From Chitinophagales bacterium (GTDB lineage Bacteria; Bacteroidota; Bacteroidia; Chitinophagales; UBA2359), in NCBI GenBank assembly GCA_016787295.1, contig JAEUUX010000137.1, positions 1-24,273 of the forward strand: a stretch of DNA of 24,273 nt, given 5' to 3'. Each line of letters starts with the position of its first letter. Position 1 is the stretch's first letter. The translations under genes and the position numbers were made by a program. The notes beneath the pieces are model-generated. The model saw nothing but the letters and a program-made list of their open reading frames with translations. It was not told the DNA's origin and did no database searches. Positions 1,784-14,662 of this stretch are shown in pieces.

Positions 1784-2548
1784 ATGCGCCTAAACGCCAC
1801 TATCATTGTCCTTACATTTGTGGGTTTTGTGTTGTTTTTTGGCTACACTTTGCCACCTTTTGCCTTATTATTTTTATTATTGTTGGTCATTGCGGTCTTG
1901 TTGTGTGTTAGTTTGGTGATAAAATATCTCAACCGTCTCACCTTAGCACAATGGGCAATTTTGAACGAGCAACTACAAATCAATCTACAGATGCCCGAAC
2001 GCGCTTGGTTAGAGTTGGAGTGGAAATATCCAAGTATGGCGGGAATGTATTTGGGCAAAAAAATCAGCATTTCGATGTTTAATGCCGAAATGTTTGGCAT
2101 TACTGCGCCCCATACGCGAATTATAATCGATGCTATTCACTATGGCAATACCTTAGAGATACGGTCGGAAGGTGTTTATACGCAATTCGAAAAGTTTTGG
2201 TTAAAAGCCAACAATTTTTATACGCGCCAAGTACAAAAAGTATTACACTATTTTGGACGGGAGGTAGTTCCACTCAAAGGCGAGGTGGCAGTAGGTGATT
2301 TGGAGTTTGACCGTCGATTTTATGTCTTGACCAACAATGCTGGTTTTGTCAAAAGACTATTAGATCCCGACATAAGAGATATTATGAAAAATGATGTTTT
2401 TACCAAAATGGGTAAATTTGTTTTAAACCAAAGCCAACTGATATATACCGAACAAATCAACATCAATACTGATTTTGAGCGTCAACGGTTTCAAAAAATT
2501 ATTTTGTTGATGTATATGATGGTTAATCGAATGGAACGAATCCGATAG
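1784..2548 (+). CDS. Hypothetical membrane-anchored protein (two N-terminal TM helices, cytoplasmic domain of unknown function)
   Basis: ORF 1721..2548 with start moved to MRLNATIIV. Hydrophobic stretches IIVLTFVGFVLFFGY and LLFLLLLVIAVLLCVSLVI. No recognisable motif. Confidence 0.45.
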   Translation: MRLNATIIVLTFVGFVLFFGYTLPPFALLFLLLLVIAVLLCVSLVIKYLNRLTLAQWAILNEQLQINLQMPERAWLELEWKYPSMAGMYLGKKISISMFNAEMFGITAPHTRIIIDAIHYGNTLEIRSEGVYTQFEKFWLKANNFYTRQVQKVLHYFGREVVPLKGEVAVGDLEFDRRFYVLTNNAGFVKRLLDPDIRDIMKNDVFTKMGKFVLNQSQLIYTEQININTDFERQRFQKIILLMYMMVNRMERIR

Positions 2549-2616: not shown

Positions 2617-3126
2617 TTATGACTCTAAAAGGCGTTTTAACTGGCGCCTCGCTAAAAAAATACGACTTTTTACTGTACCAATGGGCAAATCCAAATCATC
2701 GGCGATTTCTTGGTATTTAAACCCATCTTTGTGCATCAAAAAAGGAATGCGAAACTCTTCTGCCAAATTGTTTATCGCATTTTGAATACTTTCAATGCCC
2801 AAATTACTCTCTCCCAAATTATAGGCAACGTCAGTAGCATGATTCAAATAATAGGCATTAACTGTTGCGTCTAAAATAGTATTGTGTTTTACTGAGCGTC
2901 TATAGTTGTTGATAAAGGTATTTTTCATAATAGCAAGTAACCATGCCTTAAGGTTAGTACCATCAGAAAATTTTTCTTGATTACCCAAGGCTCGATAAAT
3001 CGTTTCTTGTACCAAATCTTTAGCATCAATTGGGTTTTTGGTTAGTGCAAGTGCATACGGTTTTAAACTGTTTGCTAATTCCACAATGATTTGTGGATTG
3101 AAATCATTAATAATGGCTTTGCCCAT
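2617..3126 (-). CDS. ECF (sigma-24 family) RNA polymerase sigma factor, paralog 1
   Basis: Region-2 motif DLVQETIYRALGN...FINNYRR and region-4 motif LPIGTVKSRIFLARRQLKRLL. 169 aa. Confidence 0.9.
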   Translation of the reverse strand: MGKAIINDFNPQIIVELANSLKPYALALTKNPIDAKDLVQETIYRALGNQEKFSDGTNLKAWLLAIMKNTFINNYRRSVKHNTILDATVNAYYLNHATDVAYNLGESNLGIESIQNAINNLAEEFRIPFLMHKDGFKYQEIADDLDLPIGTVKSRIFLARRQLKRLLES

Positions 3127-3156
3127 GGTTTGAGGTTATTTATGATAGACTATTTG

Positions 3157-3200
3157 ATTGTGCAAATGTACCGCCTTTTTCCGAAATTTCCAAATTTTTG
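3157..3200 (-). promoter_or_regulatory. Sigma-A type promoter of ECF paralog 1 (-33 TTTG, 20-nt spacer, -7 TACATTTG)
   Basis: Minus strand reads AAATTTGgaaatttcggaaaaaggcggTACATTTG. The same architecture is upstream of paralog 2. Confidence 0.6.
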
Positions 3201-3475
3201 TTTAATTATACCACCATAAGTATTAAACGGTAGCCACTTTTTTTCATAATATGCTTTTTTTAGACGACCTAACATAGCAAAATGCCTAATATTATTGCTA
3301 AGATTCGGATTTTTTAATAAGCAAAAAAACGGACATTATTGACAAAAATAACATCATTTACATGGAATATTATACTGTATTTGCTCAAGAAAAAATAAAA
3401 AACCTGCTTGTTTTACCATAAACAAACAGGTTTTGGGGCGATGCAAATCGATGATACAATTGGACGATGTATTGA

Positions 3476-3985
3476 TTAGGTTTGTAAAAAGCGTTGCAGT
3501 TCGCGACGAGCCAAGAAAATGCGGCTTTTTACCGTACCAATGGGCAATGCCAAATCGTCGGCAATTTCTTGATATTTGAAACCGTCATAGTGCATTAAAA
3601 ATGGCACACGAAAATCATCAGACAAATTATCTATTGCCGCCTGAATGTTTTCCATTCCTAAGTTGCTCTCACCTGCATTTTTGGCAGTTTCCGAAGAGTT
3701 ATTTAGATAATAAGATGTTGCTGTTTCATCAAGAATAGTATTGCGTTTTATGGTGCGACGATAATTATTGATAAAAATGTTTTTCATAATCGTAAACAGC
3801 CATGCCTTGAGATTAGTGCCGTCAGAAAATTTTTCTTTGTTGCCTAATGCACGATAAATCGTTTCTTGCACCAAATCTTCGGCATCAGTCACATCTTTGG
3901 TTAGCATGACTGCATAAGGTTTCATTGTTGTGGTTAGTTCCACAATAACTTGTGAGTTATATTCAGTTATAATAGCTTGTCCCAT
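3476..3985 (-). CDS. ECF sigma factor, paralog 2 (about 70% identical to paralog 1, same length)
   Basis: Same region-2 and region-4 motifs (LPIGTVKSRIFLARRELQRFL). 169 aa. Confidence 0.9.
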   Translation of the reverse strand: MGQAIITEYNSQVIVELTTTMKPYAVMLTKDVTDAEDLVQETIYRALGNKEKFSDGTNLKAWLFTIMKNIFINNYRRTIKRNTILDETATSYYLNNSSETAKNAGESNLGMENIQAAIDNLSDDFRVPFLMHYDGFKYQEIADDLALPIGTVKSRIFLARRELQRFLQT

Positions 3986-4061
3986 AAAATTTTAGTTTTG
4001 ATGTTATAAAAATTATGTTTCCCCAAATCGCTAACTTAATCGATATTATAAAGTCTTTATT

Positions 4062-4100
4062 GATGTTACAAAAGTAACACTTTTTTGGGAGTTTTCCAAA
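4062..4100 (-). promoter_or_regulatory. Sigma-A type promoter of ECF paralog 2 (-33 TTTG, 20-nt spacer, -7 TACTTTTG), ~80-nt leader
   Basis: Minus strand reads AAATTTGgaaaactcccaaaaaagtgtTACTTTTG. Shares ACAAAAATTTGGAAA and TAC-TTTG-A-CATCAA with the paralog-1 promoter. Confidence 0.6.
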
Positions 4101-4280
4101 TTTTTGTGGAACTTTTTTTAAAAAAAGTTAAACCTTTTTGGTTTATTTATCTCAACATAGCTTTATATGGTGTAATTATGACAAAAATAACACTTTTGGA
4201 AGACTTTTACAAGTTTATTTTGTTAATAATGTTTAATTTTACATGAACACATAATACACAAAAAATTGAGTTGACTATAC

Positions 4281-4322
4281 AAAAAAAACACGTGCTTAAC
4301 TCATATTGAGACAAGCACATGT
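4281..4322 (-). terminator. Rho-independent terminator of the arginase-fold gene
   Basis: Minus strand: ACATGTGCTT ... AAGCACGTGT hairpin followed by TTTTTTTT. Confidence 0.55.
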
Positions 4323-4372
4323 TGTTTTGTAATTGTAGTTGGGGTGAGATGATGTTCGTTAGAAACTATTTT

Positions 4373-5533
4373 TTATTGTGTGGCGCGCCAATAGGCTTTG
4401 AGCCAACGGTCGGGAATTTCGTTGCGGCAGGCAATTTCGTAGTCGCGATAGGAGCATGGCACTAAGATATAGTTGGGTTTTCGTTTGCCACTCAAAGGCA
4501 CTTTGAGCCACCATCGGTCGCTTTTGCGGCTTTTGAGAAACACCAACTCGTGGTCTTCGTCTTTCATGCTCACGATGTAGGGAATATAGCTGCGCTCGTC
4601 TAAATCTGGAAAATCGTGTTTGCGTTCATAAAAACCCTCGACAAAATACCAAATCATTTGGGCAATGCTTTGGGCTGTATATCCGTTCAAGTCCAACAAA
4701 GGGTTGTATTCATAAAAACCCATAGAACGAATATGGTCACTCAAACCTGCATAGCGCGTCATTTGACAGGCTTCTTCGGCACCGAATCCGTGCGAAGAAG
4801 TGTGGGCAACAGCAGGAGCATCAGCCGCACGCAAGCAAGATAGATTGATAGCAAACATATTGGCATCGCGCAAAATCGGCTCTAAATCGGACATGTATTT
4901 TCTGATTTCGCCCAGGCTATAGCAGTCAAAATTTAGGTTTTCGAGTGTTTCTAAGATGTAGGGGTCAACCAAAGAACGCAAATAACCTATTTGAGCAAAA
5001 TGGCTAAGACTTTGTTTGTGGGTGATGATTTGGTACAGAAACGACCTGTTTTCTAAGGAATAATCGTTGGCATGGTTAAACAGCGCAATTTTTTCGTCGG
5101 CAAAAACAAAGTGTGTTTCGGGTTCGGTGGTGGTGTGTGCCAAAAATTGTCCATATGTCAAATCGCATGTGCCTCCGAGAATGATGGGGACAATTTCTTG
5201 TTCCATCAACACCTTCAATACGCTTTGCAAGGCAAAATAGGTGTCTTGTGGTGTTTCACCTGCTACAATATTGCCCAAATCGCAAATCTGTACGCCGTCG
5301 GTCCAGAAATAAAGTGGATAAAGATGTTTGCGGATAGCGTCGGGCGAGAGTTGGCAACCACCTTCCTCAGAACGGTCTTCACACACGCCTACAATGGCTA
5401 AACGCGTGCTTGTTAGGTCGGGAAAAGCGTTTTGGGTGTGAAGCATAAGTCGGCTTCCCCACTGATTGATGTTGAAATCGATGGGCGGCGAACACAGTTT
5501 ATCCGACAAAGGGCTTAGATAGTTTTTTAACAT
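4373..5533 (-). CDS. Arginase/formiminoglutamase-fold protein, divergent (canonical metal-binding motifs not conserved)
   Basis: Matches the ureohydrolase family: IVPIILGGTCDLTYG resembles the GGDHS loop, FAINLSCLRAADAP resembles SxDxDxxDP. The His/Asp ligands appear substituted. Family call is inference from memory of motifs. Confidence 0.45.
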   Translation of the reverse strand: MLKNYLSPLSDKLCSPPIDFNINQWGSRLMLHTQNAFPDLTSTRLAIVGVCEDRSEEGGCQLSPDAIRKHLYPLYFWTDGVQICDLGNIVAGETPQDTYFALQSVLKVLMEQEIVPIILGGTCDLTYGQFLAHTTTEPETHFVFADEKIALFNHANDYSLENRSFLYQIITHKQSLSHFAQIGYLRSLVDPYILETLENLNFDCYSLGEIRKYMSDLEPILRDANMFAINLSCLRAADAPAVAHTSSHGFGAEEACQMTRYAGLSDHIRSMGFYEYNPLLDLNGYTAQSIAQMIWYFVEGFYERKHDFPDLDERSYIPYIVSMKDEDHELVFLKSRKSDRWWLKVPLSGKRKPNYILVPCSYRDYEIACRNEIPDRWLKAYWRATQ

Positions 5534-6117: not shown

Positions 6118-6867
6118 TTATGAATTAAACGGGTCTTGGTTGTTAGTAGGGCGCGGAAGTGTGGGGTCTTTGACGGGTGGCGTTTCAATGACGGCTTGGT
6201 GTGGTGACAAACGATGTGAGTGTTTCATGGCTACAAAGGCATAGCGAATACCTATGGGCAACAATAGGAGTGAAAACAAAGCTAATATTTCACTGGCTTC
6301 TTGCATAATAAAAAAATCGTATAGCCCATGCAAAATGGTGGCGCTTAATAAACCCAATAAGAGGTAACGAAAGCGGTCGACGGGAGCAGCGTGTTTTGCC
6401 AAACCCACATAGTAACCCATGATAATGCCAAAAACAGCATGGGCAGGAATGGCAGTAAACATACGGACAATGCCAATCCCGATACCGCCTTGCAAGACAT
6501 ACAAAACGTTTTCTAATGCTGCAAATCCCATGCTCACCATCACACCATAGACAATACCATCAAATGGCTCATCAAATTCGGCTTTGGGATACATATAGTA
6601 GCGCAAAAACAAAAATTTGCCCGCCTCTTCGGTTAAGGCAACCACTATAAAAGCATAAAAAGCTACATTTAGCAAACCTCCTGTTTCGGGAATGCCCCAT
6701 TTTTCATTGGCTTCACCTGCCAGCAAAGGCAAAAAAGCACTAAACATGCCAAGCAAAAAAGAGATAAATAGGTTGATAAAAGGTTCTTTTTCGTACTTGT
6801 CGCGACTATAAATGTAGCAAACCACAGCCACAACAGGAGCTAAAGCCAATAGTAATAGTTGTACCAT
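6118..6867 (-). CDS. PrsW-family intramembrane metalloprotease (anti-sigma-factor site-1 protease family)
   Basis: Multi-pass membrane protein with EExxK (ALTEEAGKFLFLRYY), FxxxH (FTAIPAHAVFGI) and a C-terminal HGLYDF motif. Start moved to MVQLLLLALAPV. Confidence 0.7.
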   Translation of the reverse strand: MVQLLLLALAPVVAVVCYIYSRDKYEKEPFINLFISFLLGMFSAFLPLLAGEANEKWGIPETGGLLNVAFYAFIVVALTEEAGKFLFLRYYMYPKAEFDEPFDGIVYGVMVSMGFAALENVLYVLQGGIGIGIVRMFTAIPAHAVFGIIMGYYVGLAKHAAPVDRFRYLLLGLLSATILHGLYDFFIMQEASEILALFSLLLLPIGIRYAFVAMKHSHRLSPHQAVIETPPVKDPTLPRPTNNQDPFNS

Positions 6868-6961: not shown

Positions 6962-8449
6962 TTAGCGATTCATCAAATTCAGAAATTCTTCGTTAGATTT
7001 AGTGTCGCGCATTCGTTCCAAAAGCGTATTCATGGCTTCTTCGGCGGTCATGTCCGTGAGGTGGTTGCGCAATATCCAGATGCGTTTGAGGGCATCGCGA
7101 TCCAACAAAAGGTCTTCGCGGCGCGTGCCTGAAGCGGGAATATCTACAGCGGGGAAAATACGTTTGTTGGCTAATCGGCGGTCGAGCTGCAACTCCATAT
7201 TACCTGTACCTTTGAACTCTTCAAAAATCACTTCGTCCATGCGCGAGCCTGTGTCGATGAGGGCGGTTGCCAAAATGGTGAGTGAGCCACCGTTTTCGAT
7301 GTTGCGTGCCGAGCCGAAAAACTGTTTGGGTTTGTGGAGCGCATTTGCCTCAACGCCTCCCGATAGCACTTTGCCCGAGGCAGGCGCAACGGTATTGTGG
7401 GCGCGAGCAAGGCGGGTTATCGAGTCCAAAAGTATTACTACATCATGCCCACACTCCACCAAGCGACGCGCTTTTTGCAGAGCAATGGTCGATACTTTGA
7501 CATGGCGTTCGGCGGGTTCGTCGAAAGTAGAGGCAATGACTTCTGCCCGCACCGAGCGTTCCATGTCGGTCACTTCTTCGGGGCGTTCGTCGATGAGCAG
7601 TATTATAAGGTATACTTCGGGGTGATTTTGGGCGAGAGCGTTGGCAATTTCTTTGAGAAAAAAAGTTTTACCTGTTTTGGGTTGCGCCACAATTAGTCCA
7701 CGCTGTCCTTTGCCAATGGGAGCAAACAAATCGATAAGGCGAAGCGAATAGCTATTAGTATTTTGGCTAAGATTAAATTTCTGGTTTGGGAACAAAGGTG
7801 TTAGGTAATCAAACGGCACGCGGTCGCGAATTTCTTCGGGATTTCTGCCATTGATAGCCGACACTTTGAGCAAAGCAAAGTATTTTTCACCCTCTTTGGG
7901 CGGGCGAATCGCTCCACAAACCGTATCACCCGTTTTTAAGCCAAACAATTTGACTTGTGAAGGCGATACATATATATCGTCGGGCGAACTAAGGTAGTTG
8001 TAGTCAGCCGACCGCAAAAAACCATAGCCGTCGGTCATCATCTCCAGCACACCCTCTCCCTCAATGAGTCCGTCCAAATCGTAGTTAAAATTGTCGGTGA
8101 AGTCATCGGTGTCTATGTTTATTCGACCTATGTTGGTGTTTTTTTCTTCGTTGTCGGAAGGTATATTTGGGGGCAAAACTGTATTCGTTTCTTCGTTGCT
8201 ATATGGCGTGTTATCCATAGCACTGTCGGTCAAATTGGTTTTACCTTTTTTGGTCACTATGTGGCGTGTGCGTGCGGTTTTGGGTTTTTCGGTAGAAGTG
8301 CCATTGTTTTCGACACGATGTTGTTCGTTTAATATGTGATGAATTAGCTCGGCTTTAGAGAGTTTTTTATAGTCAGGAATGAACAAAGACTCGGCAATAG
8401 CTCTCAATTCGTTGTCTAACAAATCGTTGAGTTGTAAAATATCATACAT
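6962..8449 (-). CDS. rho: Transcription termination factor Rho with an N/S/T/D-rich N-terminal insertion
   Basis: Walker [19 protein letters not shown]-binding and ATPase regions. A low-complexity insert of about 80 aa ([13 protein letters not shown]...[17 protein letters not shown]) lies between the N-terminal helix bundle and the OB fold. Confidence 0.95.
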
Positions 8450-9858: not shown

Positions 9859-11634
9859 ATGGAAAACAAAATCATAGCAGGATACATTAACGAAGATTTC
9901 AAAAAAGACTTTGGAATTGAAGAAACCAAAGAGGACACCTTGTTTGAAATGTTTGCCAATTATTGTATCATTTCAAGAATACACCCCGAAGCATTTTCCA
10001 CTGATTTTGACAAAATTGAGGATATGAATATTGGGGGCGGTGAAGATACAGGCATTGACGGATTAGGGATTATTGTGAATGAACATTTGGTTTCAAGCAT
10101 AGAGGAAATAGATGACCTTAAAAACTTCCGTAGAAGATTAGACGTGCAATTTATATTTGTGCAAGCAAAAACTTCCCCTAAGTTTGAGGCTGAAAAAGTT
10201 GGTACTTTCATTTTTGGCGTAAAAGACTTTTTTAGAGAACAACCATCAATCAAGTTTAATGATAATATCAAAATTTTCAGAGAACTGAAAGACTATATTT
10301 ACAAAAATAGTATTGACATTGAAGTCAAGCCAACTTGTCAGATGTACTATGTAACGACAGGGAAATGGGTTGATGATAAAAATGTTTCAGGCAGAGCTAA
10401 CTCTGAAAAAGCCGAATTAGAAAGGCTTGGAATATTTAGCAGTGTTGATTTTATTCCAATTGACGCAGATACTTTGGGTAGCATTTACCGTGAGATTAAG
10501 AATAAAGTCAAAAAGGAAATAATTTTTGAAAAACGTGCTTCATTACCTTTTATTAAGGGAGTTAGAGAGGCTTATATTGGAGTATTACCAATTTCAGAAT
10601 ACATCAATCTAATAAAAGGTTCTGATAACAAAATTCAGAAAAATTTATTTTATGACAATGTACGAGATTTTTTAGGTACAAATTCCGTCAATAGTGAAAT
10701 TGCAAATACAATCAAAAATAAAGAAGAACAAGATAAGTTTGCAATTCTGAATAATGGTGTTACAATCGTTGCCAAGTCAATAAATCCAATAGGCGACAAA
10801 TTTACAATTAGCGACTTTCAAATAGTAAACGGGTGCCAAACAAGCCACGTATTATTTAATAACAGAGATTATTTAATTGAAAGTAAGGCATTTATTCCAA
10901 TTAAACTAATTGTTACAGATGATTACGAAGTGGCTAATCAAATTACGAAAGCAACCAACCGACAAACAGAAGTAAAAGTTGAGGCATTTGCTTCCTTAGA
11001 GCCTTATCATAGAAAATTAGAAGAGCATTACAATTCATACCCCAAAGCAACCCGCATTTATTACGCAAGACGCAGTAATCAATATGATAATGCTATTCCT
11101 GCAATTCCAAAGGAAAGAATTATTACACTTGCGGCACAAATTAATGCTTTTGTTTCTGTTTTCTTAAATGAACCTCATAGCACTCACAGGTATTATGGAG
11201 AACTTTTAAAGGCTTACGAAGATAAGTTGTTTCAAGCCGAACATAATCCTGATATGTATTATGTAAGTAGTTTTGCATTGCAGGTTGTTGAAAAGGTGTT
11301 TAAGAGTAAACCACCAAAAATTGACGCATTTTATCGTGCAAACAAATTTAAGCCTCATCTACTTGTAGTTTTGAGGATTATAACTTGTGGTTTTAAATAT
11401 CCACAATTTACAAGCAAGGAAATGGCAGCATATTGTGAGAAACTGCATACACTACTTTTGAATGAAACAGAAACTTTAAAAGCATTAGCAACAGCAACAA
11501 AAATTGTATCTAATGCTATAAACAACTACAAACAAAAGTATGGTGCGACAAATGTTCGTGAATTACACAGAATGCGCAACTTTACGTTTGAACTGATAGA
11601 GGAGGCGAAAAAATATCAACCAAAGAGCAAATAA
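9859..11634 (+). CDS. AIPR-family abortive-infection protein (591 aa), solitary
   Basis: Size, composition and N-terminal region are typical of AIPR/Abi-like phage-resistance proteins. Low-GC codon usage. Family call is from memory, not a search. Confidence 0.55.
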   Translation: MENKIIAGYINEDFKKDFGIEETKEDTLFEMFANYCIISRIHPEAFSTDFDKIEDMNIGGGEDTGIDGLGIIVNEHLVSSIEEIDDLKNFRRRLDVQFIFVQAKTSPKFEAEKVGTFIFGVKDFFREQPSIKFNDNIKIFRELKDYIYKNSIDIEVKPTCQMYYVTTGKWVDDKNVSGRANSEKAELERLGIFSSVDFIPIDADTLGSIYREIKNKVKKEIIFEKRASLPFIKGVREAYIGVLPISEYINLIKGSDNKIQKNLFYDNVRDFLGTNSVNSEIANTIKNKEEQDKFAILNNGVTIVAKSINPIGDKFTISDFQIVNGCQTSHVLFNNRDYLIESKAFIPIKLIVTDDYEVANQITKATNRQTEVKVEAFASLEPYHRKLEEHYNSYPKATRIYYARRSNQYDNAIPAIPKERIITLAAQINAFVSVFLNEPHSTHRYYGELLKAYEDKLFQAEHNPDMYYVSSFALQVVEKVFKSKPPKIDAFYRANKFKPHLLVVLRIITCGFKYPQFTSKEMAAYCEKLHTLLLNETETLKALATATKIVSNAINNYKQKYGATNVRELHRMRNFTFELIEEAKKYQPKSK

Positions 11635-11703
11635 AAAACGGTTACCAACATTATGTTTTCCGAAAAGACAGACTATAGGCTTTTGTGCTTTCCATAAACT
11701 TTA

Positions 11704-11755
11704 TGCGAAGGGCAAGGATGGTGTGTTAAATCCTGTCCTTCGCATGACTTTTCCG
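11704..11755 (+). terminator. Terminator-like hairpin downstream of the AIPR gene
   Basis: TGCGAAGG...CCTTCGCA stem followed by TGACTTTTCC. Confidence 0.45.
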
Positions 11756-12018
11756 CCGTTTCCTCCCTTTTCCATAACCACTTGATTGCCAGAAGTTTAT
11801 ATAAGTATATTTTTATAAATTTAGGAAATATTAAATTTATAGCTTATTGTTTATTGGGGTTTTTTGAAAAAATGAGAGGAATTGGTGTTTCAATTTAAAC
11901 AAACAAAAATAAATCGCCCAACAAAGTATATACACATCAAGATTACTACACCATTTATAGACCGAAATGGTCTCTACAATTAAGCAAACTTTTTTACAAA
12001 ATTTAAATTTTATTCTCA

Positions 12019-12191
12019 TGGCAAAGAAAATCACACCGCAACAAAATCAGTCCAATATGCAAAATGCCAACAAAGGCACGAAAGGGACAAACAAACAGTA
12101 CGACCAAAATCAAGGTAATAAAGGTAAACAACTCAATCCAACGCCAAACAATAGCAATACGGATAAAGGCGGAGGAAAGGAGCCGAATTGA
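12019..12191 (+). CDS. Small Q/N/K-rich hydrophilic protein (57 aa), questionable
   Basis: MAKKITPQQNQSNMQNANKGTKGTNK... Followed by a perfect 13-bp hairpin. It could equally be a non-coding AT-rich region. Confidence 0.25.
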
Positions 12192-12246
12192 CGACTAAAA
12201 AAGCAAAAACAAAGCATGGTTGTATCTGATGGAGAAAACTCAATCT

Positions 12247-12284
12247 GCAAACCCAACGTAGAGCGGCTACGTTGGGTTTGTTAC
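12247..12284 (+). terminator. Perfect 13-bp hairpin AAACCCAACGTAG-agcgg-CTACGTTGGGTTT
   Basis: Read directly. The trailing U-tract is weak (TTGTTACC). Confidence 0.5.
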
Positions 12285-12349
12285 CATTGTACGAAATAAA
12301 AACAAACACACCAAAACCCACACAAATTCCTCCAAAAACCAAAAATTCC

Positions 12350-12385
12350 ACGCCAAATTTTGCGAAAAATTGCAAGATTTGGCGT
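12350..12385 (+). repeat. Module A, copy 1: 14-bp hairpin ACGCCAAATTTTGC-loop-GCAAGATTTGGCGT (one G-U pair)
   Basis: Copy 2 at 14706-14741 is a perfect 14-bp stem. The single difference between copies is compatible with wobble pairing in RNA. Confidence 0.6.
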
Positions 12386-12468
12386 AACTTTGTCTCCCGA
12401 AACCAACATTTATGCCACCAGAAGTATTAACCATTGCCGAACTATATGTTAACAAAAAAAATAATTAA
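12385..12468 (+). promoter_or_regulatory. Module B, copy 1: -7-like TAACTTTG followed by a conserved 18-codon upstream ORF (MPPEVLTIAELYVNKKNN) overlapping the MNT start
   Basis: Nearly identical module at 13161-13240, which carries a 17-codon ORF MPPEVLTIAEIKAQYPD. The att/atc difference is synonymous. Confidence 0.45.
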
Positions 12469-12742
12469 ACAGCGAATCCAACAAAATAAGGACAAACTCG
12501 ACAGTTTGGGTATTGACCTTATTGGGCTTTTTGGCTCTTATGTAAGAGAAGAACAAAGAGCAGATAGCGATATTGACATTTTTATCTCCTTCAAAGGAGG
12601 ATACGAAACGTTTAATAACTTTATGGACTTATCCTATTTACTCGAAGAAATATTTAAAGGAGTAAAAGTGGAAATAATAACCCAAAACGGATTAAGCCCC
12701 TACATTGGACCCAAAATTTTAAAGGAGGTAGAATATGTCTAA
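12446..12742 (+). CDS. mntA: MNT-type nucleotidyltransferase (antitoxin of a HepT/MNT type VII TA pair)
   Basis: GLFGSYVREEQRADSDIDIFISF matches GSxxRGxxxxxSDxD. The ORF-track start is TTG at 12434; ATG at 12446 is preferred. Confidence 0.8.
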   Translation: MLTKKIIKQRIQQNKDKLDSLGIDLIGLFGSYVREEQRADSDIDIFISFKGGYETFNNFMDLSYLLEEIFKGVKVEIITQNGLSPYIGPKILKEVEYV

Positions 12743-13085
12743 ATTGCCACTCGATTATCTGCGCCATATTTTGGACGAATGCAACTATGTCGTTTCTGTT
12801 ATTAAGGAAGATACCGTAAAAAATGACTTGCTTGATAATGAAACATTAAAACGAGCCATTGTCAGAAGTTTAGAGATAATAGGCGAAGCCACAAAAAAAA
12901 TACCTGCCGATTTTAAAGTTAAATGGACAACAATATCATGGAGAAACATGGCAGGGATGAGAGATAAACTTATTCACGATTATATGGGGGTCAATTATTC
13001 CATTGTTTGGGACGTAGTCAAAAATATCATTCCTATTCTCAAAGAGCAAATAGAAGAAATAATTAAAGAAGAAAATGCTCGCTAA
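12735..13085 (+). CDS. hepT: HepT/DUF86 RNase toxin
   Basis: Rx4HxY motif RDKLIHDYMGV. 8-bp overlap with the upstream MNT gene is typical of this pair. Confidence 0.8.
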   Translation: MSKLPLDYLRHILDECNYVVSVIKEDTVKNDLLDNETLKRAIVRSLEIIGEATKKIPADFKVKWTTISWRNMAGMRDKLIHDYMGVNYSIVWDVVKNIIPILKEQIEEIIKEENAR

Positions 13086-13160
13086 CAAAATACAGAACAG
13101 AACAATAAGCCATTTAGTCGGTTTGTTACCCATGAATGTCATTTTTTCTTAAAAAAACTA

Positions 13161-13240
13161 AACTTTGTCTCCCAAAACCAACATTTATGCCACCAGAAGT
13201 ATTAACCATCGCCGAAATAAAAGCGCAATATCCCGACTAA
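13161..13240 (+). promoter_or_regulatory. Module B, copy 2, upstream of the fic gene, with its mini-ORF (13187-13240)
   Basis: AACTTTGTCTCCCAAAACCAACATTTATGCCACCAGAAGTATTAACCATCGCCGAA aligns with 12386-12441. Confidence 0.45.
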
Positions 13241-13297
13241 TGGGTGTTCTACCGAGCAAGAGCCGTTGTGTGTAATTTTTAAACCAGAAAAGAAAAA

Positions 13298-14662
13298 ATG
13301 ATAACTATTGACCAATCTCTACTGAGTCCTGACCTTATTCAAAGACTCGATAATCTACATTCTGAAATTACTAAATTTCGTCAAGAAGGCGAATTAGACC
13401 AACTTTCAAAAGAAAAATTGCGGGACTATTTTAGAACACAACATATTTTCCATAGCGCAGGGATTGAAGGCAATAGGCTGACCTTGCAAGAAACGATGCT
13501 GGTTTTGAAAGAAGGGGTTACCATCTCTGAAAAATCCATTCAAGACTCAATAGAAGTTAAAAATTTAGGTATTGCCTTTGATTTTTTTTATGAATTGGCA
13601 CAAGAAGGCACTCCTATTTCGGAAAATTACATCAAGCAGCTCCATCAATTGGTAGTCGGTAACGATCCCTATTTGAATGCAGGAAATTACAGAAATGTGG
13701 GTGTAGTTATCACAGGTTCAGAGCATACACCGCCCGAACCTTTTGAAGTACCTTTCAAGATGCAAGAACTAATGGATTGGTTGAACGAAAATTTTGACGA
13801 AGAAAACCCTATTGTTTTGGCAGCAGTAGCTCATCACGAAATGGCAAAAATTCATCCTTTTGCAGACGGAAATGGTAGAACAGCAAGGTTGCTTCTTAAC
13901 CTTATTCTGTTGAAAAAAGGCTATCCGATTTGTAGCATTAAACGAACCGAACGTCCAAGATATTATGAGGCGATGTCGGAGGCAGACAGCGGTAACTATC
14001 ATCAAATTATTGAAATGGTAGCAGAAAGCAGCGCTGAACTTTTTGCAGTGTATGTCCGAATAAGGGAAGAAACTAACAGAAAGACACAGTTTGCTAAAAA
14101 GTGGGGAAATAAAGACATAGAAAACAGGCTCAGAAAAGAGAAAGGACGATTTGAAATTTGGCAAAATAGAATGAATCAAATCAAGTTGGAATTTAGGCAG
14201 TTTGCCAATTTGTTAAGCGAGAATTTAGAAACATATAGTGCTACTTTCTACGAATATCCGCCACTAACTTTTGAAACGTTTCAAGAATTAGTGGAACAAG
14301 GTAGTGCTAACAATACTTTTTTCTTTTCCATTCGTTTCTACCAAAGAGAAACAAAGAAGATTGTACAGACATTCCTTTTCAGATTTTTTAGAGACCACAA
14401 TAAATTTGGTATTGACAACCCTATTGTGCCTTTGGAACTGAATTGTTTTAATCCCGAAACAAAAAATTTTCTTGTTATAGAACGTTTCACTTGGGCAGAC
14501 CGCATACAACTAAGAGCTTTTTACTTCAATCAGTCAAATGATTTGGTAATTAGAAAATATAATCGTTCAACAAAAACCATCAACGAAGAAATCAACCTAA
14601 ACCTATATAAAGTGGCTGAAACATTTTTTGATGATGTACTTGCTAACGTGCTTGGCGTGTAA
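13298..14662 (+). CDS. Fic/DOC-family protein (AMPylator) with an intrinsic inhibitory motif
   Basis: Fic motif HPFADGNGRTARLL. N-terminal SAGIEGN fits the (S/T)xxxE(G/N) auto-inhibitory helix. Confidence 0.85.
   Translation: MITIDQSLLSPDLIQRLDNLHSEITKFRQEGELDQLSKEKLRDYFRTQHIFHSAGIEGNRLTLQETMLVLKEGVTISEKSIQDSIEVKNLGIAFDFFYELAQEGTPISENYIKQLHQLVVGNDPYLNAGNYRNVGVVITGSEHTPPEPFEVPFKMQELMDWLNENFDEENPIVLAAVAHHEMAKIHPFADGNGRTARLLLNLILLKKGYPICSIKRTERPRYYEAMSEADSGNYHQIIEMVAESSAELFAVYVRIREETNRKTQFAKKWGNKDIENRLRKEKGRFEIWQNRMNQIKLEFRQFANLLSENLETYSATFYEYPPLTFETFQELVEQGSANNTFFFSIRFYQRETKKIVQTFLFRFFRDHNKFGIDNPIVPLELNCFNPETKNFLVIERFTWADRIQLRAFYFNQSNDLVIRKYNRSTKTINEEINLNLYKVAETFFDDVLANVLGV

Follow-up and report, generated by a model that had tools for sequence, protein, structure and literature searches.

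An operator against the promoters of a tandem pair of ECF sigma factor genes in a Chitinophagales bacterium points to transcriptional rather than proteolytic control

Introduction

Sigma factors of the extracytoplasmic function (ECF) type are usually thought of as members of sigma/anti-sigma pairs. Contig JAEUUX010000137.1 of a Chitinophagales bacterium (assembly GCA_016787295.1), analysed over its full 24,273 nucleotides (nt) and referred to here as the window, carries two tandem ECF sigma genes that raise the question of how such factors are kept in check when no anti-sigma gene follows either of them. A first-pass annotation, made from the DNA alone, had looked for the answer in a neighbouring membrane protein and a PrsW-family protease. 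The two sigma genes are the following, lengths being given in amino acids (aa) of the open reading frame (ORF).

2617-3126, minus strand: ECF sigma gene 1; 169-aa ORF, with Pfam domains Sigma70_r2 and Sigma70_r4_2 only
3476-3985, minus strand: ECF sigma gene 2; 169-aa ORF, lineage-specific tandem paralogue of gene 1, with Pfam domains Sigma70_r2 and Sigma70_r4_2 only

The answer that we consider moderately probable is transcriptional gating of the pair through an operator, the probable binder being a regulator of the CarH/LitR type, with no dedicated anti-sigma factor involved. The control point would thus be the amount of sigma factor made. Each gene would be read from its own strong sigma-A-type promoter (TTTG-N20-TAnnTTTG), whose -33 element is abutted by a palindromic operator (TGTTTAA-N16/17-TTAAACA). 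A transcription factor acting as a dimer or tetramer, most probably a CarH/LitR photoreceptor encoded elsewhere in the genome of this organism, would bind the operator and, by repression or by activation, gate the sigma-A RNA polymerase, as litS is gated by LitR in Streptomyces. The sigma factor would be active by default as soon as it is synthesised and would steer RNA polymerase to a regulon of photoprotection and carotenoid genes. What the analysis establishes is the structure of the genes, their promoters, the operator, the context of the family and the lack of an anti-sigma gene beside the pair; the nature of the regulator, its mode of action, light as its signal and the genes that the sigma factors would serve are what we infer from related loci. 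The operator, together with its link to CarH/LitR regulators and carotenoid genes, points to transcriptional and not proteolytic control.

The sigma pair and its family

The two sigma proteins align without gaps at 71% identity and 88% similarity, in agreement with the earlier estimate of about 70%. Identity reaches 79% in the sigma2 region and 80% in the sigma4 region and falls to 59% in the linker, whereas 25 of the 26 residues (96%) of the region 4.2 helix-turn-helix are shared, which bears out the description of the promoter-recognition regions as near-identical. Because these helix-turn-helix regions are 96% identical, both copies should recognise the same promoters. In both proteins, Sigma70_r2 covers residues 17-78 and Sigma70_r4_2 residues 112-163, and neither region 1.1 nor region 3 is present, as is the rule for ECF (group 4) factors. 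Both also score above the cut-off of the generic ECF model TIGR02937 (sigma70-ECF, NCBIfam) and contain the canonical region 2 motif DAxDLVQET.

Each sigma gene is monocistronic and has its own terminator.

3399-3434, minus strand: intrinsic terminator of gene 2, with a T-run behind a 15-bp stem; kept in relatives
2557-2593, unstranded: hairpin between gene 1 and the convergent gene of a protein with two transmembrane helices (2-TM protein); 15-bp stem, scored as a plus-strand terminator

In the second hairpin, the T-run of the minus strand is the weaker one, and the structure is likely to work as a terminator in both directions. Downstream of gene 1 and gene 2, the ORF list of the window holds no ORF of more than 60 aa, no ORF of more than 48 aa lies wholly inside the 349-nt spacer between the two genes, and none of the ORFs of 20-60 aa inspected around them resembles an anti-sigma factor. 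With these terminators and without a plausible ORF behind them, the earlier statement that no anti-sigma gene follows either sigma gene stands. An Rfam search of the whole window returned no RNA family.

The window sigma factors are 50-60% identical to a very large, Bacteroidota-wide family of proteins of about 170 aa, in which long segments, GTNLKAWL and G[FY]KY[QH]EIA among them, do not vary. A scan of one genome per species yielded 80 sigma loci from Saprospiraceae, Chitinophagales, Sphingobacteriales and Cytophagales, in which the best match reaches 60% identity only; the source organism is therefore not in that genome collection. Close relatives are three metagenome contigs (L091-L093) with DNA about 85% identical to the window, in which the tandem sigma pair is kept. 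In a neighbour-joining tree, the two window sigmas are sisters and the adjoining branch is a LitR-sigma-crtIB locus; gene 1 and gene 2 arose by the recent duplication, in tandem, of an ECF sigma found throughout the Bacteroidota. Besides the window pair (2617-3985), tandem or near-tandem duplicates occur in L001-L004 (4220-5513), L050 (about 4000-5430), L015 and L093. As the pairs of L001-L004 and L050 cluster pairwise in the tree, each copy having its own promoter, the duplication took place independently in at least three lineages.

The neighbouring ORFs were clustered across 84 non-redundant loci of the sigma family. In these loci, no conserved small or membrane protein stands beside the sigma gene, so that the missing adjacent anti-sigma gene is a trait of the whole family. 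What recurs in genome loci is a protein with Pfam domains MerR_1 and B12-binding_2 (CarH/LitR type) before the sigma gene (34 of about 86 loci) and, after it, the carotenoid genes crtI (36 of about 86) and crtB (32). The full gene order MerR/B12 regulator - sigma - crtI - crtB is found in about 40% of the family loci, and extended clusters also carry idi, ispH, crtZ and lycopene cyclase genes, named here from their sequences and not by profile search. The Saprospiraceae loci lie instead among the housekeeping genes tgt, lptG, mutY, ssb and gldE. When the search was started from the MerR/B12 protein in metagenomes, a sigma gene was found immediately downstream in 35 of 80 loci. No other regulator gene is recurrent among the neighbour families that were read.

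Between sigma and crtI, the genomes of several Spirosomataceae and other Cytophagales share a further element, ATTGATTGAGTAGTTTTTGGTTAAAAAAGAGGAAGGTTC, which is about 40 nt long and has a hairpin terminator behind it. It stands just past the sigma stop codon (approximately L057:4560-4680, L062:4530-4600, L066:4525-4600 and L084:4550-4620), with weaker copies in L069 and L087, and is absent from the window. This element could be a small RNA or an attenuator.

Promoters of the sigma genes

Three promoters or promoter-like blocks were located upstream of the sigma genes.

3163-3197, minus strand: gene 1 promoter; -33 TTTG (3191-3194), 20-nt spacer, -7 TACATTTG (3163-3170)
4069-4103, minus strand: gene 2 proximal promoter; -33 TTTG (4097-4100), 20-nt spacer, -7 TACTTTTG (4069-4076)
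4182-4216, minus strand: distal second promoter-like block upstream of gene 2; TTG-N20-TATTTTTG, three mismatches, a weaker third copy

The first-pass annotation had reported the same promoter before each gene. Indeed, the pattern AAATTTGGAAA-N16-TACNTTTG matches exactly at 3163-3197 and 4069-4103 on the minus strand. With up to three mismatches allowed, the window contains 4 matches where shuffles predict 0.26, and TTTG-N20-TAnnTTTG occurs 5 times against 0.35 expected. The upstream regions of the two genes align over one block only. The promoter of gene 1, situated 37 nt upstream of the ATG, is unchanged in relatives L091 and L093, and the proximal promoter of gene 2 is kept in L091, L092 and L093.

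In Bacteroidota, the -33 element of sigma-A promoters is TTTG. Their -7 element is TAnnTTTG, at -12 to -5, and flavobacterial ECF promoters carry a CGT -10 box (PMC9723704). This box is absent from both sigma promoters, which thus do not present the AAC-containing -35 and CGT-type -10 of the autoregulatory ECF type. The GGAAA following TTTG in the window is not kept in orthologues, which read TTTGG[ATC]. Because there is no CGT box and the GGAAA is not conserved, the sigma-A-type reading of these promoters appears to be the better one, a contribution of an ECF holoenzyme being possible. The earlier assignment to a sigma-A architecture is supported in the family as well: of 87 sigma genes, 53 have TTG-N17-21-TAnnTTTG no more than 130 nt from the start codon, against 9 of 126 other genes with long upstream regions and 0.7 in shuffled DNA, part of this excess stemming from TTTG inside the operator half-sites described below. 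Similar promoters also precede unrelated genes of the window (the Major Vault Protein (MVP)-like, DUF218 and AIPR genes), including AAATTTGG and GTACnTTTG contexts; the MVP-like gene is preceded by AAATTTGGCT...TAGCTTTG and the DUF218 gene by ...CGTACCTTTG.

A palindromic operator against the promoter

The promoter part of the conserved upstream block had been recognised from the outset, but the palindromic operator extending upstream of it had been missed. It was first apparent in the orthologues, whose upstream regions contain repeated TTGTTTAA and TTAAACAA motifs. The related loci, 680 kb in all, contain 98 matches to TGTTTAA-N15-18-TTAAACA with at most one mismatch, whereas shuffles give 2.25. 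The great majority of them (83) lie within 260 nt upstream of a sigma gene, 8 are upstream of a MerR/B12 gene and 7 elsewhere, and at least one site is present in 58 of 84 loci. The operator is symmetric, its flanks included (TTTGTTTAA and TTAAACAAA). The position weight matrix (PWM) of the half-site has the consensus AAAATTAAACAAAAT, with which more than 95% of 194 half-sites agree at each of T6, A9, C10 and A11, and the spacer measures 16 nt in 57 and 17 nt in 36 of 97 sites.

The position of the operator is as regular as its sequence. The right half-site of the first palindrome, called here O1, ends 27-29 nt before TAnnTTTG in 23 loci, that of gene 1 included, and so abuts the -33 TTTG; the modal offset to the -7 box is 28 nt, exactly the value of the gene 1 site. 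A second palindrome (O2), which has the -7 box inside its spacer, is also found in 23 loci. In the fullest cases, four half-sites at roughly 0, 23, 44 and 67 bp sandwich the -33 and -7 boxes. A rule by which stand-alone sigma genes would have O1 only and crt-linked ones O1 and O2 was checked against the loci and did not hold.

In the window, the following elements belong to this architecture.

3199-3229, minus strand: O1 of gene 1; CGTTTAA-N17-TTAAACA, then AAAA and the -33 TTTG; score 21.4
4105-4134, minus strand: degenerate O1 of gene 2; GGTTTAA-N16-TTCCACA; score 14.3, third-best in the window
4230-4260, minus strand: partial palindrome of the distal block, upstream of gene 2; score 14.9, second-best in the window
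3150-3162, minus strand: 'ATCAA box' downstream of the gene 1 promoter; shared ATCAA, a possible decayed half-site of the second operator

The O1 of gene 1, with one mismatch to the core, is the best palindrome of the window by the family PWM. The O1 of gene 2 is kept in L091-L093 and aligns without gaps to the gene 1 block, with equal spacing to the promoter. All three top-scoring palindromes of the 24-kb window are inside the 736 nt (3%) upstream of the two sigma genes. A conserved CATCAA box had also been described downstream of both promoters; ATCAA is indeed shared, but the full box is not, the two promoters reading CAATCAA and CATCAA. In relative L091, a good half-site, AATTAAACAG, stands in the corresponding columns of gene 1, and the -7 box of other orders is immediately followed by a right half-site. 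The ATCAA box would thus sit in place of the right half-site of O2 and is possibly what is left of it.

The candidate operator-binding protein

The operator is most probably bound by a MerR-type photoreceptor dependent on adenosylcobalamin (AdoCbl), of the CarH/LitR family, as suggested by the company the operator keeps. The DNA-binding helix GIKAHT[IL]RIWEQRY of the MerR/B12 regulators is near-invariant across orders, as is the operator, and these proteins keep the Wx9EH AdoCbl motif across orders. The palindrome lies between the two genes in 33 of 35 LitR-sigma metagenome loci, and the operator is present in 27 of 32 genome loci with an adjacent LitR. The regulator gene itself also has the palindrome some 60-110 nt upstream of it, where it overlaps the -33 position of a sigma-A-like promoter, which is what autoregulation would look like; the same placement before a LitR gene occurs in L154 and L172, two loci without a sigma gene in the contig DNA examined. 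The half-site AAAATTAAACAAAA matches the published CarH repeat consensus nAnnTnnACAn (PMC8156234) at its best-conserved positions. The sigma genes of the window have the palindrome before them, at 3199-3229 (one mismatch) and 4105-4134 (three mismatches), with the offset typical of the family, and these two sites may be the regulator operators that a LitR/LitS-type cascade would have there.

Several observations weigh against this reading. As regards geometry, the half-sites are inverted with 16-17-nt spacers and stand 23-24 bp apart from centre to centre, up to four of them over about 74 bp, whereas CarH operators consist of 3-4 tandem direct repeats with an 11-bp period (PMC8156234). As regards distribution, 26 of the 84 loci of the family lack a site when up to one mismatch is allowed, the operator is also present in 31 of 52 loci without a nearby MerR/B12 gene, and profile searches of the 24-kb window revealed no CarH/LitR gene and no crt gene. 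The window itself has a single good operator, the O1 of gene 1, whose left half is lost in relative L093, the operator-promoter block being otherwise invariant in the relatives of about 85% identity; the gene 2 copy has three mismatches, the promoter-overlapping second operator of many orthologues is missing or decayed, and a mononucleotide shuffle of the window beat the best-site score in 1 of 20 cases. Lastly, no target promoter of the sigma factors was found, the intergenic regions before crtI, idi, a CruF-like gene and others having no convincing shared two-block motif. The motif CAAC-N18-GTTAGG before the Algoriphagus CruF-like gene is speculative as a sigma target element.

Part of these observations would be explained if the operator were real but bound by a regulator other than CarH/LitR, not encoded beside the sigma gene and responding to a signal that need not be light. 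The sites in loci devoid of a MerR/B12 gene, the unusual geometry and the lack of LitR and crt genes in the window all suit this alternative, yet it is unlikely, as it leaves aside the high frequency of the operator in loci with an adjacent LitR, the typically autoregulatory sites before LitR genes, the agreement of the half-site with the CarH repeat and the fact that no other regulator gene recurs nearby.

Autoregulation by the sigma factors

Distinctly less likely still is the possibility that the block or the palindrome is the promoter recognised by these ECF sigmas themselves, in a positive feedback, the sigma-A likeness being coincidental or the promoters dual. Few copies of the motif belong to anything but the sigma gene and the regulator partnered with it, the 16-17 nt between the half-sites are what a typical ECF promoter has between its -35 and -10 elements, and AAC occurs within the half-sites. 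The solved structures closest to the window sigmas are SigH of Mycobacterium tuberculosis and SigR of Streptomyces coelicolor, both of group ECF12 (E = 1e-25 to 1e-27), the best matches among characterised ECF sigmas. Promoters of SigH and SigR have GGAA-type -35 elements, and TTTGGAAA is present in the window. However, a symmetric inverted repeat, flanks included, fits a dimeric DNA-binding protein and not a directional promoter; GG(A/T)A-N16-GTA is about 3 nt short of the SigR/SigH spacing, by which a SigR/SigH-type promoter (GGAA-N-GTT) was ruled out; and TTTGG...TAnnTTTG also precedes unrelated genes of the window. The missing CGT-type -10 box (PMC9723704) and the divergence of the GGAAA in orthologues, discussed above, argue in the same direction. 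The window sigma stays far below the NCBIfam SigH cut-off, with 107 bits against 252, and, unlike in the SigH and SigR systems, no zinc-binding anti-sigma (ZAS) gene of the RshA or RsrA type (HxxxCxxC) lies downstream of the window sigmas.

The membrane protein and the PrsW-family protease

In Bacillus subtilis, Sigma-W, RsiW and PrsW form a system of regulated proteolysis. The proposal that follows from the first-pass annotation is that the window sigmas are made constitutively from housekeeping promoters, held inactive by the 2-TM protein as their anti-sigma factor and freed when the PrsW-family protease destroys it. The two proteins concerned are encoded as follows.

1784-2548, plus strand: 2-TM protein, the proposed anti-sigma factor; convergent with gene 1, anti-sigma role not supported
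6118-6867, minus strand: PrsW-family membrane protease (Pfam PF13367, E = 1.3e-38); in a separate prsW-TPR-arginase-like string

This proposal is very unlikely. The assignment to the PrsW family is confirmed by Pfam, the score nevertheless staying below the NCBIfam equivalog cut-off (154 versus 225 bits). The likeness to the Sigma-W system is that a PrsW-family protein is encoded 2-3 kb from the window sigma genes. In contrast to that system, no RsiW-like single-pass anti-sigma gene is present, PrsW is not co-conserved and the transcription units are separate: the prsW string is set apart from gene 2 by 387 nt and a hairpin with a T-run. A tblastn search with the window PrsW found no match in any of the 84 other non-redundant sigma-family loci (within about 4 kb of the sigma gene), the linkage being limited to the close relatives of roughly 85% identity. 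The nearby PrsW is most likely a bystander, and its supposed role in post-translational control is not sustained.

The 2-TM protein does not fare better as an anti-sigma candidate. It has no Pfam or NCBIfam match, and a word-indexed search of a 5.8-billion-protein database yielded only 5 homologues. A transmembrane helix begins as early as about residue 6, and the start MRLNA is invariant in the homologues, so that the protein has no N-terminal cytoplasmic domain; the part in which an anti-sigma fold was to be sought does not exist. Both helices are N-terminal and are followed by K/R residues, and the rest of the protein is modelled as an alpha/beta C-terminal domain of about 200 aa that is probably cytoplasmic, a point in favour of the proposal. 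The low-confidence AlphaFold2 model (mean predicted local distance difference test score (pLDDT) of 62, from a 6-sequence alignment) gave no match in the PDB, anti-sigma domains included, with Foldseek at E <= 0.001.

The homologues of 57-59% identity, in L094 and L095, stand in contig DNA in which no sigma gene was called or matched. That of L094 follows a sigma-54 activator, and that of L095 is flanked by a UDP-glucose dehydrogenase gene and by a fragment, recognised by its sequence, of a PP2C-like phosphatase. In the nearest genome match, however, a 2-TM homologue of 43% identity (L011:2886-3440, minus strand) adjoins the sigma gene. It is divergent from that gene there, whereas the window gene is convergent and thus not co-transcribed with gene 1; the L011 arrangement could be residual synteny or a weak functional link. 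As stated above, the sigma family as a whole has no conserved partner. The locus is hence a warning for annotation, as proximity alone is insufficient to infer a PrsW-anti-sigma pathway.

As a side observation, the phosphatase fragment upstream of the L095 homologue (L095:3-527, plus strand) is the C-terminal part of a phosphatase of the PP2C/SpoIIE type.

The absence of any specific control, with two redundant constitutive sigmas whose upstream likeness would come from recent duplication, is hardly credible, since, even if some identity is expected between paralogous upstream regions and the sigma-A-like promoters are strong, the architecture and its fixed 28-nt offset are kept across orders at 50-60% protein identity and the upstream regions of the two genes do not align outside the block.

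Comparison with known systems

The system closest to the proposed one is LitR-LitS of Streptomyces coelicolor, in which an AdoCbl-binding MerR-type regulator, LitR, represses or activates the ECF gene litS and sigma-LitS drives crt promoters of the form GCATCCR-N15-CVGAAD (PMC11519972). In both cases, the amount of an ECF sigma, and not its sequestration, would be the control point. In the Bacteroidota family, though not in the window, a B12-binding MerR regulator likewise stands beside the sigma gene with crt genes alongside, and the operator is found at the sigma promoter and at the promoter of the regulator itself. The differences are the phylum, the -33/-7 promoter grammar and the usual co-transcription of crtI and crtB with the sigma gene in the Bacteroidota family; the window, moreover, has a duplicated sigma gene and no nearby LitR or crt genes.

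CarH of Thermus, Bacillus and Myxococcus forms tetramers with AdoCbl, which block sigma-A promoters as long as it is dark and fall off in the light (PMC8156234). Common points are a large operator of several half-sites overlapping or abutting a sigma-A promoter, a half-site that fits nAnnTnnACAn and the Wx9EH motif in the neighbouring regulators. Apart from the geometry already discussed, the target is different, being here a sigma-factor gene. An ECF sigma also takes part in the light-induced carotenogenesis of Myxococcus xanthus, namely CarQ, which is co-transcribed with and sequestered by the 6-TM anti-sigma CarR and autoregulated from an ECF-type promoter (PMC8156234). Neither a CarR-type partner nor such an autoregulated promoter was seen at the window sigmas.

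Carotenoid clusters of the order merR-rpoE-crtI-crtB, the same as in about 40% of the sigma-family loci, have been listed in Echinicola, without an operator or a regulatory model (PMC8683446). Literature searches on the operator sequence, and on CarH with Bacteroidetes and ECF, returned nothing relevant.

Other features of the window

The remaining part of the window includes several genes unrelated to the sigma pair.

21349-23811, minus strand: bacterial homologue (820 aa) of the shell protein of eukaryotic vaults; carries the Major Vault Protein shoulder domain and Vault_3 repeats (Pfam E = 6e-31)
23936-23967, minus strand: near-consensus TTTG-N20-TAnnTTTG preceding the MVP-like gene
9859-14662, plus strand: defence/toxin-type run with an AIPR abortive-infection protein (591 aa), a HepT-like RNase toxin (116 aa) and a Fic/DOC protein (454 aa)
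19317-20870, plus strand: single 517-aa ORF in which porphobilinogen deaminase (HemC) is fused to uroporphyrinogen-III synthase (HemD)
6962-8449, minus strand: 495-aa Rho factor, its N-terminal part having a long insertion of low complexity

Such N-terminal insertions are typical of Bacteroidota Rho, and the one found here supports the assignment to this phylum.

Significance

Taken further, the comparison leads to a proposal that we put forward tentatively, as something short of probable in its entirety. In Bacteroidota, regulators of the CarH/LitR type would use an operator geometry not described before, with up to four inverted half-sites (A)TTAAACAA, two helical turns apart and sandwiching the sigma-A -33 and -7 elements, and their output would be an anti-sigma-free ECF sigma, duplicated independently in at least three lineages; the window would then hold a light-controlled sigma pair detached from its sensor and from the carotenoid genes. 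Only the operator geometry and the Bacteroidota-wide module would be moderately novel in this proposal, which is drawn from comparison between loci.

A phylum-wide family controlled only through its own promoter would be a clean example of the minority class of ECF sigmas governed at the level of transcription. To our knowledge, light regulation in Bacteroidota is almost unstudied. If the operator is a LitR/CarH site, it would be a DNA target on which the B12 photoreceptors of this phylum could be tested, and would show them to bind in a different geometry. In that case, the operator, the sigma-A promoter and the orthogonal ECF sigma would also make up a compact light-switch module, of a kind already exploited in Streptomyces.

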